The notes below the pieces were generated by a model. The model did not search any database. It was not told where the DNA came from and worked only from the letters and a program-made list of their open reading frames with translations. Source: Chloroflexota bacterium (GTDB lineage: Bacteria; Chloroflexota; Dormibacteria; CF-121). From it: a stretch of 50,695 nucleotides of DNA. Shown in pieces: positions 24,052-34,534 of the stretch. How positions within the stretch are numbered: the stretch's first letter is position 1; each line of letters starts with the position of its first letter. Where the stretch lies: positions 1-50,695 of the forward strand of contig VBIS01000081.1 in NCBI GenBank assembly GCA_005880605.1. Direction: 5' to 3'. The translations under genes and the position numbers were made by a program.

Positions 24052-24707
24052 GGAAGCCAGATCTCGGACGCGGACTGGACGTCGGTGATCCACCAGCGTC
24101 CATCGATGTCGACCAGCGTGTAGTGGTAATAGCCGAGGAAGCGATGGGTGGTCCGCCGTCCCAGGCCCACGCCCTTTTCCGCATCCGGGACCAGCCGATA
24201 GATCCACTCTTCCTTGGTCGTCACGTTGACGTTCTGAGGGCTGGCCTCCAGGCCGTAGGCGGAGAGCTCGACTTTGCCGATTTGCAGGTAAGCCGTGTAG
24301 GAAACGTCGAGCACCTCGCAGGTGATGTCGAGCCGGGCGGCGGGGAAGGACTCGAAGTCGCCCGAGAGGTCATGCGCGACCTGGGAGAGCATCGGCTCCA
24401 GGTAGACCTCGCGCAGCACGTCGGCGTCGCGGTTGTTGTACGCCTGCTGATTGAGCTTGATCGACCGAAGGACTGTGTCCTTGATCGCCGAGACGTTGAA
24501 CGCGGTCTCGCGACGGTTGGGTAAAGCCTTGTGAAACCGGGCGCCGACGCGGCGGGGGGCGACACCGTAGTGCGAAGCAATGCCCTCGATCCGCGTCAAA
24601 TCCGAAAGAGCCTTCGTGACGAAACAGCACTCCACGTCCACCTTCCGGACTCGCTTCAACTGGCGTCTCTGGGTGGTATTGGGCGCGCTGACCGAGCTCT
24701 TCCTCAT
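24048..24707 (-). CDS. hypothetical protein with NTF2-like C-terminal half
   Basis: 219-aa track ORF. The C-terminal ..YHYTLVDIDGRWWITDV pattern suggests a cone-shaped NTF2-like fold. Start unresolved (ATG 24707, GTG 24638/24632, TTG 24599), and every option overlaps the annotated start of the divergent kinase gene. Confidence 0.4.
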   Translation of the reverse strand: MRKSSVSAPNTTQRRQLKRVRKVDVECCFVTKALSDLTRIEGIASHYGVAPRRVGARFHKALPNRRETAFNVSAIKDTVLRSIKLNQQAYNNRDADVLREVYLEPMLSQVAHDLSGDFESFPAARLDITCEVLDVSYTAYLQIGKVELSAYGLEASPQNVNVTTKEEWIYRLVPDAEKGVGLGRRTTHRFLGYYHYTLVDIDGRWWITDVQSASEIWLP

Positions 24708-32269: not shown

Positions 32270-34534
32270 ATGACAGCCCTCGACCGCCAGCTGGTCCGCC
32301 TCCGTTTCGCGGCGCTCGCGATTCCATTCGGCCTGCTGCTCTGGCTGCCGTCGGCGTCGGTGCCGGTCACCATCATCCTGGCCGGCCTGATGGCCGCCTA
32401 CAACGGCATCGCGCTGCTCGCGATCCGCAGGCGGGCGGCGCTGCGTTTCTCCCGGCCGATGGCGGTCCTCCTGCTGCTTCTCGACCACGCCGTCATCAGC
32501 GCCTGGATCCTGCTCTTCGTCAGCCCGTCCTCGAGCCTTCCCTACCTGCTCTACGCGCTGGTGGCCGCCGAAGCGGTCTTCCGGTTCGAGCTCTGGGGCG
32601 GTATCGGAACCAGCCTTTTCTTTACGAGCGGAGTGATCCTCTTCCAGACGAGCGACCTCGGTTTCGCCATCTCGGTCCGCGACTCGGTGCTCCGTGCCAT
32701 CCCCACGGTCGCCGTCATCACCGGGCTCGGTGCGGCGGTGCGCGCGATGAACACCGAGATCCGGGGCACCCGGCGGCGCCTCGATCAAACCGAACAATTG
32801 CGCAACGTGCTCGGCGAGCTGGTCGGACAGATGGACGTGTCGCGAATGCTCAACACCGTGATCCGCTGCGGCATGGAGCTGCTCCAGATGGACTCAGGCG
32901 CCATCGTCCTCCTCGATGAAGATCGCGGCGTGTTCACCTTGCGCGCCGCGGTCCGCCTCCCGGGGGCGGTCGAAGGCGATGCCGTCTCGGTGGCCGACGG
33001 CATTGTTGGCCGCGTAGTGCGCGCGAAGCGCTTCGTCATGTTGGGCGAGCCTCCACTCTTTGACCTGGCCACCCTCAATGCGGCCGGCTACGCGTGTGCC
33101 TTCGGTTCGCCGGTGCTGCTGGAAGGCAAGGTCTTTGGCGTATTGCACCTCCAGACCCGCGACAATCAGCGGCGCCTGACGCGGTGGGAGGAGGAGGCGC
33201 TCGAGGTCCTCTCGCAGCAGCTGGCGGTGGCGCTTCGCAATGTCCGTCTCTTCGACGAGAGCGAGAAGCGTGCGCGGCGGCTCGAGCTGCTCAACCAATC
33301 GATCGACCAGATGAACCAGAAGCTGTTCGAGCCCGAGTTGCTCGATGTCGTGGCCAGCGCGCTCACCGGCAACCTCGGGTTCGCGGCGGCGCAGGTCTGG
33401 CTGCTGGAGCCGAGCGATGGCGCGCTCTGGCGGCGTGCCAGCCACCACACCACCGCCAACCCGCCCCCCGTTCCCGGACGGGTCGAGCGCGGGATGAGCG
33501 AGATCGGCCAGGTGGCCGAACTCCGGGTGCCGATCGTGACCAATGACCCGGCCAACCATCGCCATGTTGGCCTCAACCCCTGGATGACCGAGGAAGGCAT
33601 CCAGGCCTTTGCGGGCTTTCCGCTGGTCGTGGGTGACCAGCTGCTGGGCGTGCTTGCCGTCTATCACCGACGTCCGCTCGACCGCAACACGATCGAGCTG
33701 CTGACCCTGTTCGCGCAGCACGCGGCCACCGCGATCCAGGAAGCGCACCTGTTTCACCTCGCCACCGAACAAACCGCACGGCTCACCGCGCTCAACGTCG
33801 AGCTGCAGCGCGCCAACCAGCACAAGGCCGAGTTCCTGGCCAACATGAGTCACGAGCTGCGCACGCCGCTCAACTCGATCCTGGGCTTCTCGCAGCTGCT
33901 GCTCGAGGGTGACGGCGGAGTCCTGAGCGGAGACCAGCGTCAGGACGTCGACATCATTACCCAGAATGGGCAACACCTGTTGGCTCTGATCAACGACCTG
34001 CTCGACATCTCCAAGCTGGAGGCCGGCAAGGCGCAGCTGCACCGCGGCGAGGTGGAGGTCGAGCCCCTGATTTTGGAGTGCGTCGAAAGTGTCAGCTCGC
34101 TGGCCAAGACCAAGAAGCTCGACCTGAGTGTCAGCGTCTCCGCCGAGGTGGGACGCGTCTTCGCCGACGGTCCGAAGCTCAAGCAGGTGCTCCTGAACTT
34201 GCTCGGCAACGCCATCAAGTTCACAGAGACTGGCAGCGTCCGGGTCACCGCCGAGCGCCAGGGCGCGGAGCTGCGGGTGAGTGTCCGCGACACGGGGATC
34301 GGCGTTCCGGTTGAGGACACGGAGCGGATCTTCGAAAGCTTTACGCAGGGAAAGAGCGGCATCAGCGGCAAGTACCAGGGCACCGGCCTGGGCCTCGCGA
34401 TCTGTCGCCAGCTGGTCGAAATGCACGGTGGCCGAATCTCCGTCAAGAGCACGCCCGGCCAGGGAAGCACCTTCAGCTTCACCATTCCCCAACGCGCACT
34501 CCCGGACGCGATCGATCTATCGAGCGCGGCCTAA
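32270..34534 (+). CDS. sensor histidine kinase F: polytopic N-terminal domain + two GAF-like domains + HisKA + HATPase_c
   Basis: 754 aa. About 5-6 N-terminal TM helices, H-box MSHELRTPLNSILGFSQ, N-box LNLLGNAIKFT and G-boxes DTGIGV / GTGLGLAIC. GGAGGG lies before the ATG, 15 nt after gene E. Confidence 0.85.
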   Translation: MTALDRQLVRLRFAALAIPFGLLLWLPSASVPVTIILAGLMAAYNGIALLAIRRRAALRFSRPMAVLLLLLDHAVISAWILLFVSPSSSLPYLLYALVAAEAVFRFELWGGIGTSLFFTSGVILFQTSDLGFAISVRDSVLRAIPTVAVITGLGAAVRAMNTEIRGTRRRLDQTEQLRNVLGELVGQMDVSRMLNTVIRCGMELLQMDSGAIVLLDEDRGVFTLRAAVRLPGAVEGDAVSVADGIVGRVVRAKRFVMLGEPPLFDLATLNAAGYACAFGSPVLLEGKVFGVLHLQTRDNQRRLTRWEEEALEVLSQQLAVALRNVRLFDESEKRARRLELLNQSIDQMNQKLFEPELLDVVASALTGNLGFAAAQVWLLEPSDGALWRRASHHTTANPPPVPGRVERGMSEIGQVAELRVPIVTNDPANHRHVGLNPWMTEEGIQAFAGFPLVVGDQLLGVLAVYHRRPLDRNTIELLTLFAQHAATAIQEAHLFHLATEQTARLTALNVELQRANQHKAEFLANMSHELRTPLNSILGFSQLLLEGDGGVLSGDQRQDVDIITQNGQHLLALINDLLDISKLEAGKAQLHRGEVEVEPLILECVESVSSLAKTKKLDLSVSVSAEVGRVFADGPKLKQVLLNLLGNAIKFTETGSVRVTAERQGAELRVSVRDTGIGVPVEDTERIFESFTQGKSGISGKYQGTGLGLAICRQLVEMHGGRISVKSTPGQGSTFSFTIPQRALPDAIDLSSAA

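Follow-up and report, generated by a model that had tools for sequence, protein, structure and literature searches.

A conserved six-gene histidine-aspartate signalling cluster of Dormibacterota encodes a coiled-coil protein with a kinase-type DHp domain and two receivers but no ATPase domain

Introduction

The Dormibacterota, a phylum of uncultured bacteria, are abundant in soil. In other phyla, complex two-component operons that encode no output domain are familiar. Proteins that join a receiver to a long coiled coil and have no enzymatic output are known as well, as in FrzS and AglZ of Myxococcus. In this study, we analysed a cluster of six genes, A to F, located at positions 24580-34534 of a 50,695-nucleotide stretch of DNA (contig VBIS01000081.1 of GenBank assembly GCA_005880605.1; the whole stretch is called the window below). 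The fifth gene of the cluster encodes protein E, in which a long coiled coil is followed by a dimerisation and histidine phosphotransfer (DHp) domain of the HisKA type, without the ATPase domain of a kinase, and by two receiver (REC) domains.

In the described systems closest to this cluster, a receiver hands its phosphoryl group to a kinase-like protein. In the SdrG-PhyT-PhyR pathway, the receiver phosphorylates a kinase-like His protein which does not autophosphorylate (PMC5898713), and the receiver RedD likewise phosphorylates RedE, a kinase-like protein unable to autophosphorylate (PMC2755868). Full-text literature searches returned no paper describing the present cluster, and no relevant paper on signal transduction in Dormibacterota.

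Results

Genes A to F are conserved as a unit. In a locus survey with one genome per species, about 30 loci contained a full-length E, 61-95% identical to E of the window, and the order A-B-C-D-E-F was intact in each locus long enough to judge, which agrees with the preliminary description of this DNA as a linked six-gene system. The usual flanks are genes for an AMP-binding enzyme and a methyltransferase upstream and for a GDT1-family protein and an OmpR-type regulator downstream. In locus L028, whose E is 61% identical to that of the window and which is the most divergent locus with enough upstream sequence, the farther upstream flank contains sortase and DUF3048 genes; the flank of L031 differs too. 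L028 nevertheless retains the six genes together with the small divergent gene adjoining A (upX, described below), and this retention despite a different farther flank speaks for the block being preserved as one unit. At the level of sequence, the comparison confirms that the cluster is a real conserved unit, beyond chance. The cluster contigs of L013, L023, L028, L030 and L031 (E 61-95% identical) are labelled Binatus, Acidoferrum, Eisenbacteria or Limnocylindria, and these odd labels are probably due to mis-binning or mislabelling, not to horizontal transfer.

The six open reading frames (ORFs), all on the + strand, overlap or nearly abut at the coordinates first read for them, and their third-position GC content of 0.79-0.89 is coding-like in a sequence of 65% GC overall. 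A and B share an ATGA overlap, B and C overlap by 35 nt, C and D as well as D and E are joined by a TGATG overlap, and a 15-nt gap with GGAGGG inside lies between E and F; every junction is thus as the preliminary description had given it. C starts with GTG at 29083, and AAGGAGGA lies 7 nt 5' of this start. Since a divergent gene lies upstream and a convergent GDT1-family gene, whose stop overlaps the stop of F, lies downstream, the block comprises exactly six genes. One tRNA-Leu was the only RNA element found in or around the cluster, and consensus scans for promoters and terminators gave counts equal to the shuffled expectation.

Pfam analysis of the six ORFs reproduced the domain inventory that had been read by eye, namely three kinase cores (A, B and F) and one H-box protein without ATPase domain (E), with no missed HATPase_c in E and no output domain. 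The H-box reads SHELRTPLN in A, B and F and SHDLNSPLN in E. Neither Pfam nor NCBIfam gave a match in the six proteins to DNA-binding, cyclase, phosphodiesterase, CheB/methylesterase or histidine phosphotransfer (HPt, PF01627) families. Thus, the earlier claim that no output domain is present holds inside the six genes, but it overlooked three conserved neighbours. None of the proteins reached an NCBIfam equivalog cut-off, and the known named systems were ruled out on this basis, all equivalogs scoring below cut-off for every protein. The count of seven receiver-like folds needs a similar qualification: six are solid, one is marginal at 15 bits, and in three the acceptor position is occupied by N, E or A, which makes them pseudo-receivers. 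In the other four, B-REC2, C, E-REC1 and E-REC2, the acidic pocket is retained along with the phospho-Asp, Thr/Ser and Lys residues, and all of these are invariant across orthologues.

Protein E (29807-32254, + strand) consists of three parts. Residues 1-470 (29807-31216) form, as read from the translation, a long coiled coil. It has an N-terminal motif, and W-x2-[DE]-R-x2-L repeats occur at W67, W162, W229 and W406; some orthologues have a 52-aa insertion after residue 70. Residues 471-548 (31217-31450) are the DHp domain with H487 (Pfam HisKA, 50 bits), without an ATPase domain, and residues 565-812 (31499-32242) are two canonical receivers with D615 and D742 (Pfam). No HATPase_c match was obtained in E with Pfam at E<=0.01, and E is not a histidine kinase in the usual sense, as the catalytic HATPase_c domain is missing. 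An AlphaFold2 (AF2) model of residues 440-815 (pLDDT 67) has a DHp hairpin, a low-confidence linker of about 20 residues, and then two receivers joined by a helix; as modelled, there is no room for an ATPase domain between DHp and REC1. Foldseek of this model returned PleD-like tandem receivers. We also considered whether E or D hides an ATPase or output domain and rejected this, since Pfam and NCBIfam gave HisKA and REC alone and the E model agrees. H487 is invariant in 33 orthologues, and the receivers have an invariant D, T and K as well as an invariant connecting helix (KPIDRQQLLQMMVKFDLLAD). The DHp-REC half is 95-100% conserved (receivers 0.9-1.0), and the coiled coil, with a conservation of 0.73-0.92, is the least conserved part of the protein.

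The four DHp domains of A, B, E and F are 35-61% identical to each other and have the same helix-1 residues. The DHp of E is 49% identical to that of B, its nearest among the cluster DHps, and E-REC1 and B-REC3 are reciprocal best matches. From these two relationships, the C-terminal half of E looks derived from a B-like hybrid kinase whose ATPase domain has been lost. By sequence, the DHp of E is matched best in the PDB by kinase DHps, among them those of RetS (6dk7, 6dk8) and of the pseudokinase DivL.

The E family was searched for in 1.8 billion representatives by an exhaustive profile-free search and then by a profile search, and in both searches it was confined to metagenome-assembled genomes labelled Dormibacterota. 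The homologues are annotated as Candidatus Dormibacteraeota or 'Chloroflexi bacterium', from soil metagenome-assembled genomes. Matches in Nitrospirota, Planctomycetes, Anaerolineae and other groups were rejected as E-like proteins because they span only E residues ~478-809, and both of those inspected are ordinary hybrid kinases with HATPase_c. Common to the family are an N-terminal PSFxELLxxGxxFL motif, a coiled coil that varies in length and carries W-x2-[DE]-R-x2-L, a DHp-like H-box, a first receiver with Asp, or in some members Glu, as acceptor, an invariant KPIDRQQLLQ linker, an invariant Asp in the second receiver, and a C-terminal Ala-Ala, which is invariant among the distant paralogues. 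The H-box His is invariant in ten distant paralogues and at least 90% conserved in a wider set of 27 sequences. The family includes shorter paralogues of 500-770 aa with coiled coil, H-box and two receivers (L033, 9902-11701; L081, 10001-12076; L082, 10001-12298; L083, 10001-11686). These are orphans in unrelated contexts (uvrA/uvrC and lgt; nitrile hydratase genes; dnaE and yggT) with no kinase beside them, and two assemblies hold both an E orthologue and a paralogue (L029 with L033, and L012 with L083). In the short paralogues (P0126, P0131, P0133 and others), an invariant KRGERRxR stands right before the terminal AA.

The kinases A, B and F score 72-79 bits for HisKA and 106-117 bits for HATPase_c in Pfam, and their N, G1 and G2 boxes are readable (NNAIKFT/SNAVKFT/GNAIKFT, DTGIG, and G(V/T)GLGLA). 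With an H-box His, invariant among the orthologues of each, and a HATPase_c domain containing these boxes, all three are HisKA-type sensor histidine kinases. A (24580-26685, + strand) is a membrane-anchored GAF-GAF-HisKA-HATPase_c sensor kinase (Pfam), in which H468, E469 and T472 are invariant in 27 orthologues. Of the two transmembrane (TM) segments previously assigned to A, one is clear, at residues 49-75 (hydropathy scan, threshold 1.6), and the second, at ~28-47, is weaker and was read by eye from hydropathy; judged from the sequence, the segments are so closely spaced that a periplasmic domain has no room. The start of A at 24580 is doubtful because protein conservation is missing over the first ~25 codons and the ATG is absent from many orthologues. 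The conserved protein sequence starts at RFNWRLW, around residue 24, and the real start is possibly later, up to ~24650. A stretch conserved at the DNA level, GTAGTGCGAAGCAATGCCCTCGATCCGCGTCAAATC, spans the presumed ATG, which may sit in the 5' untranslated region. F (32270-34534, + strand) is a polytopic membrane kinase with the same GAF-GAF-HisKA-HATPase_c order (Pfam), with several TM segments within residues 8-157 (hydropathy scan) and an H528 that is invariant in 33 orthologues.

B (26682-29117, + strand) is cytoplasmic, with no TM segment in the hydropathy scan, and Pfam, together with residue conservation, resolves it into a pseudo-REC (N58), a REC (D197), a coiled-coil linker, HisKA (H322), HATPase_c, a pseudo-REC (E611), a degenerate REC-like domain (A735), and an Arg-rich tail. 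REC1 and REC3 score 64 and 62 bits for Response_reg, and the fourth receiver is the marginal one (15 bits, E=0.028, covering the first 48 of 111 profile positions). Considering the residues at the phospho-acceptor positions, N58 in REC1, E611 in REC3 and A735 in REC4, of which N58 and E611 are invariant in 28 orthologues, these three domains are best taken as pseudo-receivers whose canonical site cannot take a phosphoryl group. Since its C-terminal receiver-like domains carry E611 and A735 in place of a phospho-accepting Asp, B does not qualify as a classical hybrid kinase. Its sole canonical receiver is the N-terminal REC2, which is joined to the kinase core by a helical linker of about 60 residues, the layout of an input domain. 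The Arg-rich tail RRRRTGRDRRQGLDRRR (residues ~795-811, window ~29065-29114) ends ...DRRR in 26 of 28 orthologues.

C (29083-29472, + strand) is a stand-alone canonical receiver of the hybrid-kinase type (Pfam Response_reg, 92 bits). D11, D54, T84 and K106 are invariant in 31 orthologues, the motif ALTAHAMAGDRE is present, and the best NCBIfam alignments are with the receiver domains of BarA, HrmK and TorS. By sequence, C looks like an intermediate-type phosphorelay receiver detached from a hybrid kinase.

D (29472-29807, + strand) is a 111-aa coiled coil with weak coiled-coil-type Pfam matches and nothing else. It shares an N-terminal motif with E (RSYPEILQLNQELV in D, RSFADILQQNQEFI in E), and over a 57-residue stretch D residues 27-83 are 42% identical to E residues 72-128. 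On this comparison, D is best described as a truncated duplicate of the N-terminal coiled-coil module of E. D stands between C and E in every cluster, and no other D relatives were found in the fetched loci beyond this position; in the most divergent loci it is longer and has a W-repeat. D is the fastest-evolving of the six proteins, and its dN/dS of 0.11-0.24 clearly points to purifying selection. The idea of D as a cryptic HPt or His carrier was rejected because its histidines lack positional conservation in the divergent orthologues of L028 and L031.

The C-termini of D (29796-29804), E (32243-32251) and F (34523-34531) are Ala-Ala and conserved in orthologues, with D ending ...R[KR]AA in 29 of 29; A ends ...RVA and C ends ...K[TS]A. 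An AA ending occurs in 1 of 42 other ORFs of the window. An HU-like DNA-binding protein with an N-terminal extension, encoded at 19151-19612 on the - strand, ends ...ARKAA, the tail of D. CtrA and ssrA carry C-terminal degrons of the ClpXP type, and by analogy the C-terminal Ala-Ala may be such a degron.

A candidate terminal output is encoded 1.2 kb downstream of the cluster, two genes on, at 35776-36642 on the - strand. The product combines a receiver with a Trans_reg_C winged helix (Pfam 109 and 90 bits), which makes it a member of the OmpR/PhoB family. It is 92-99% identical across loci, above any cluster protein, and it is an orphan with no adjacent kinase. Its best NCBIfam matches are RpaB (205 bits, cut-off 330) and MtrA (195 bits, cut-off 300), with 137 bits for CtrA (cut-off 350), and it is thus not an equivalog. 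About 48 residues precede the receiver in the 288-aa ORF, which suggests that the true start is probably some 45 codons inside, near 36500. A tRNA-Leu (GAG) gene lies just past the regulator gene, at 36907-36992 on the + strand.

The gene upX (24048-24524, - strand), divergent from A, encodes about 155 aa and is a candidate associated component on the basis of synteny and its AF2 model. It adjoins A in all cluster-bearing loci, L028 and L031 included, and is more conserved than A to F. No family match was found in Pfam, NCBIfam or PDB sequences, and the 28 matching protein clusters in the database are all hypothetical. The AF2 model (pTM 0.70, pLDDT 72) has three helices and four long strands, arranged in a possible NTF2-like cone. 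Its best PDB folds are the IMS domain of ARC6/PARC6 and SnoaL-like proteins (TM-score 0.5-0.58), with one Foldseek match at E<=0.001. Relative to L001, L008, L030 and others, the lineage of the window has lost ~75 bp of the intergenic region between upX and A (window ~24500-24520). The deletion removes the usual GTG start, so that gene callers extend upX to 207-222 aa, overlapping A; the 219-aa upX ORF reaching 24707 is probably an artefact of this deletion.

The same intergenic region contains a direct repeat, GTAAAGCCTTGTGAA (GTAAA-N5-GTDAA), at 24521-24535 on the + strand, a candidate operator of the OmpR family. It has one match in the 50.7-kb window against 0.01 expected, and exactly one copy is found at the same spot in 24 of 24 cluster-bearing loci compared. 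With its period of 10 bp, it has the form typical of operators of the OmpR/PhoB family. Its reverse complement TTTACAAAGGTTTAC, which is the version seen most often among the loci, resembles the HLR1 box of RpaB, (G/T)TTACA(T/A)(T/A)-N2-repeat (PMC6525291). A scan for a second copy near the OmpR-type regulator gene gave chance-level matches with 2 mismatches alone. Regulator-operator feedback on the operon is plausible from these sequence features.

Upstream of upX, an arsenic-type module at 22423-24051 comprises an ArsM-like methyltransferase gene (- strand), an ArsR gene (23279-23620) and a gene for a low-molecular-weight phosphatase/ArsC-type protein (23626-24051). This module is syntenic in close relatives and absent from L028.

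Discussion

The reading that fits the cluster best is a multi-input phosphorelay, Spo0-like or Pak-SdrG-PhyT-PhyR-like, which would run via E as a kinase-less coiled-coil phosphotransfer protein, and we give it about even credence. We infer each phosphotransfer step, as well as the contact between D and E and DNA binding by the regulator, from the observed domains, catalytic residues, conservation and synteny. In the simplest scenario, the membrane GAF-GAF kinases A and F and the soluble B would autophosphorylate on the H-box His, with the activity of B probably gated by its own canonical N-terminal receiver and coiled-coil linker. All three would feed the small receiver C, the first Asp of the relay, a common target which is suggested by the near-identical DHp helix-1 specificity residues of the three kinases (PLNAIxGFSE). 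Phosphorylated C would then phosphorylate His487 of E, the second His of the relay, in the role that Spo0B, ChpT, PhyT and RedE have in theirs; E itself would be unable to autophosphorylate, as its DHp is without its ATPase domain. From this His, the phosphoryl group could go to the receivers of E (D615, D742) and/or to the orphan OmpR/RpaB-like regulator, which may bind the direct repeat upstream of A and thereby close a feedback loop. The 470-aa coiled coil of E would dimerise and position the module. D, as a copy of the N-terminal module of E, probably pairs with, caps or competes for this coiled coil, and it is reasonable to take the relation of D and E as heteromeric or competitive.

Several observations argue for this phosphorelay. 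A shuttle-type receiver, C, is present, HPt is absent, and the C-terminal receivers of B are dead. The His of the ATPase-less E is strictly conserved, and the four DHps are near-identical in helix 1. The complete kinase cores of A, B and F, the order of the block across loci, and the precedents of RedD with RedE and SdrG with PhyT point the same way. A phospho-accepting role of the E His is suggested by its invariance in orthologues and near-invariance in paralogues while the H+1 and H+4 positions, which matter for phosphatase activity, drift. The OmpR-type regulator is a possible output because the operator-like repeat is unique and conserved and because the regulator is without a kinase of its own. 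On the other hand, four points weigh against the phosphorelay. As the DHp-REC part of E looks B-derived, the E His may serve intramolecular transfer or phosphatase chemistry. The members of the E family outside the cluster are orphans with no kinase near, so that the core job of the family may not lie in relaying inside an operon. The adjacency of the OmpR-type regulator is known from syntenic, closely related genomes, and the contigs end in the most divergent loci. Finally, the likeness of the repeat to HLR1 is partial, with 6/8 and 5/8 positions in the window by manual count.

The drift just mentioned also bears on a different explanation, in which E, like RedE, would serve chiefly as a phosphatase or phosphate sink. 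The DHp of E would then dephosphorylate phosphorylated C or the OmpR-type regulator, its receivers would drain phosphoryl groups, and E would set the threshold and timing of a simpler pathway from kinases to regulator. RedE strips phosphate from phosphorylated RedF and cannot autophosphorylate (PMC2755868), and a pair of canonical receivers with no output domain is typical of a sink. E also keeps an acidic residue at H+1: its H-box core is HDLNS, and D488 (H+1) and S491 (H+4) are invariant in orthologues. However, the HisKA phosphatase motif is D/E-x-x-T/N, as cited in PMC12963549, and the invariant S491 at H+4 departs from it. Furthermore, paralogues 35-50% identical to E conserve the His but not H+1, and both H+1 and H+4 have drifted in them (HTLNS, HAINS, HALSS and similar). 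Considering both sides, we regard a mainly phosphatase or sink function as unlikely.

The E family may instead be mainly structural, scaffold- or cytoskeletal-like, with receiver phosphorylation controlling assembly or localisation as in FrzS and AglZ. The coiled coil would then be the output, and the six-gene cluster would be the control circuit of one E-family member. The family has been found in this phylum alone and has at least two members in each of two assemblies, the contexts of the paralogues are unrelated, and the coiled coils vary in length while the N-terminal motif and the W-x2-[DE]-R repeats are conserved. In addition, the N-terminus of the E coiled coil is duplicated in D, and the conserved C-terminal Ala-Ala suggests controlled turnover. 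However, the coiled coil is the part of E that is least conserved, in contrast to its DHp-REC half, and no similarity to a known cytoskeletal family was found above any threshold. We consider a mainly structural role to be distinctly unlikely, and it would be compatible with the phosphorelay, not exclusive of it. Heterodimerisation of E through its DHp with B, A or F, like that of RetS with GacS, by which the His of E would be trans-phosphorylated or kinase dimers poisoned, with the coiled coil and D tuning the pairing, would suit the closeness of the E and B DHps and their nearly identical helix 1, the RetS and DivL matches, and a co-assembly reflected in tight gene linkage, but it seems improbable to us, since the orphan paralogues have no partner kinase gene near and the shuttle-type receiver C is left unexplained. 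None of these three explanations is mutually exclusive with the phosphorelay.

Two wider proposals can be added. The preliminary description had put forward a complex of fixed stoichiometry organised on the coiled coils, and such a putative complex is possible. More speculatively, the E family could be a new class, met so far in this phylum alone, of phosphorylation-controlled coiled-coil scaffolds with an embedded His site and an abundance set by the C-terminal Ala-Ala as a degron, and A to F together with upX could form a spatially organised hub on the coiled coil of E and D that controls an RpaB/MtrA-like master regulator; we think this rather doubtful.

The suggestion that the system is undescribed stands in so far as no NCBIfam equivalog and no paper on the cluster were found, but its relay logic has precedents. 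Since Spo0, RedCDEF (PMC2755868) and Pak-SdrG-PhyT-PhyR (PMC5898713) share elements with it, the cluster is an unusual variant of known relay logic and not a new category. No description was found of an expanded family, met in this phylum alone, with the architecture of E, in which a long coiled coil precedes an ATPase-less HisKA and two live receivers, nor of a satellite such as D, a kinase with three pseudo-receivers, or the conserved association with a putatively NTF2-like gene and an operator-like repeat. The cluster opens no long-standing question. It is among the few multi-gene regulatory units conserved across the sampled members of the phylum, and it offers a compact test case for a kinase which, without its ATPase domain, has been re-used for phosphotransfer or scaffolding. 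It also presents a family, found in this lineage alone, whose members bear both His and Asp phospho-sites next to a long coiled coil. A candidate pair of regulator and operator is, moreover, testable in vitro without cultivation.

The known systems that come closest to the cluster are the Spo0, Pak-SdrG-PhyT and Red relays, the GacS/RetS/LadS network, and FrzS and AglZ. The Streptomyces polarisome protein PsmA, a hybrid pseudokinase, was rejected as a counterpart of E, since the His is absent from it, an ATPase-like domain is still there, and its linker is disordered and not a coiled coil (PMC12963549). FrzS and AglZ resemble E in having receiver domain(s) fused to a long coiled coil. However, the domain order is reversed, the coiled coil being N-terminal in E, and E has in addition a DHp His and two canonical receivers; no sequence relationship of FrzS or AglZ to E was detected. 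Like the GacS/RetS/LadS network, the cluster has several DHps of the BarA/GacS type in one pathway, one member of which is not an autokinase. RetS, however, keeps its ATPase domain and heterodimerises with GacS, whereas E is without this domain. A relay of the HPt-based type (BarA, ArcB or TorS) does not apply, as none of the six proteins contains HPt.

RedCDEF of Myxococcus xanthus is alike in architecture, being an output-less operon with a kinase, a dual receiver, a single receiver and a non-autophosphorylating kinase-like protein (PMC2755868). The dual receiver RedD and RedE are separate proteins, whereas their counterparts are fused in E, and the present cluster differs further by its three kinases, its pseudo-receivers, a coiled-coil protein and a long coiled-coil extension. 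The Pak-SdrG-PhyT-PhyR pathway of Sphingomonas and the MrrA hub of Caulobacter share with the proposed relay the passage from many kinases through a single-domain receiver to a conserved-His phosphotransferase (PMC5898713, PMC5964349). In contrast, PhyT and LovK belong to another kinase-like subfamily, their output is PhyR/NepR/EcfG partner switching, and those systems are without a coiled-coil module, a D-like protein and fused receivers.

In the Spo0 relay of Bacillus (KinA-E, Spo0F, Spo0B, Spo0A), several kinases feed a stand-alone shuttle receiver, the His phosphotransferase is a dimeric helical hairpin unable to use ATP, and the terminal DNA-binding regulator is encoded elsewhere, all features that the proposed relay would share. 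The cluster is not of the Spo0/ChpT type proper, as the DHp of E is HisKA (PF00512) and not Spo0B-type, has no pseudo-ATPase domain or ATPase-like fold, and no Spo0A or CtrA equivalog was found. Furthermore, this DHp shares its polypeptide with two receivers and a coiled coil of 470 aa, the output candidate is of the OmpR type and not Spo0A, and all components lie here in one putative operon. By analogy, a functional correspondence with the Spo0/ChpT relay is nevertheless possible.

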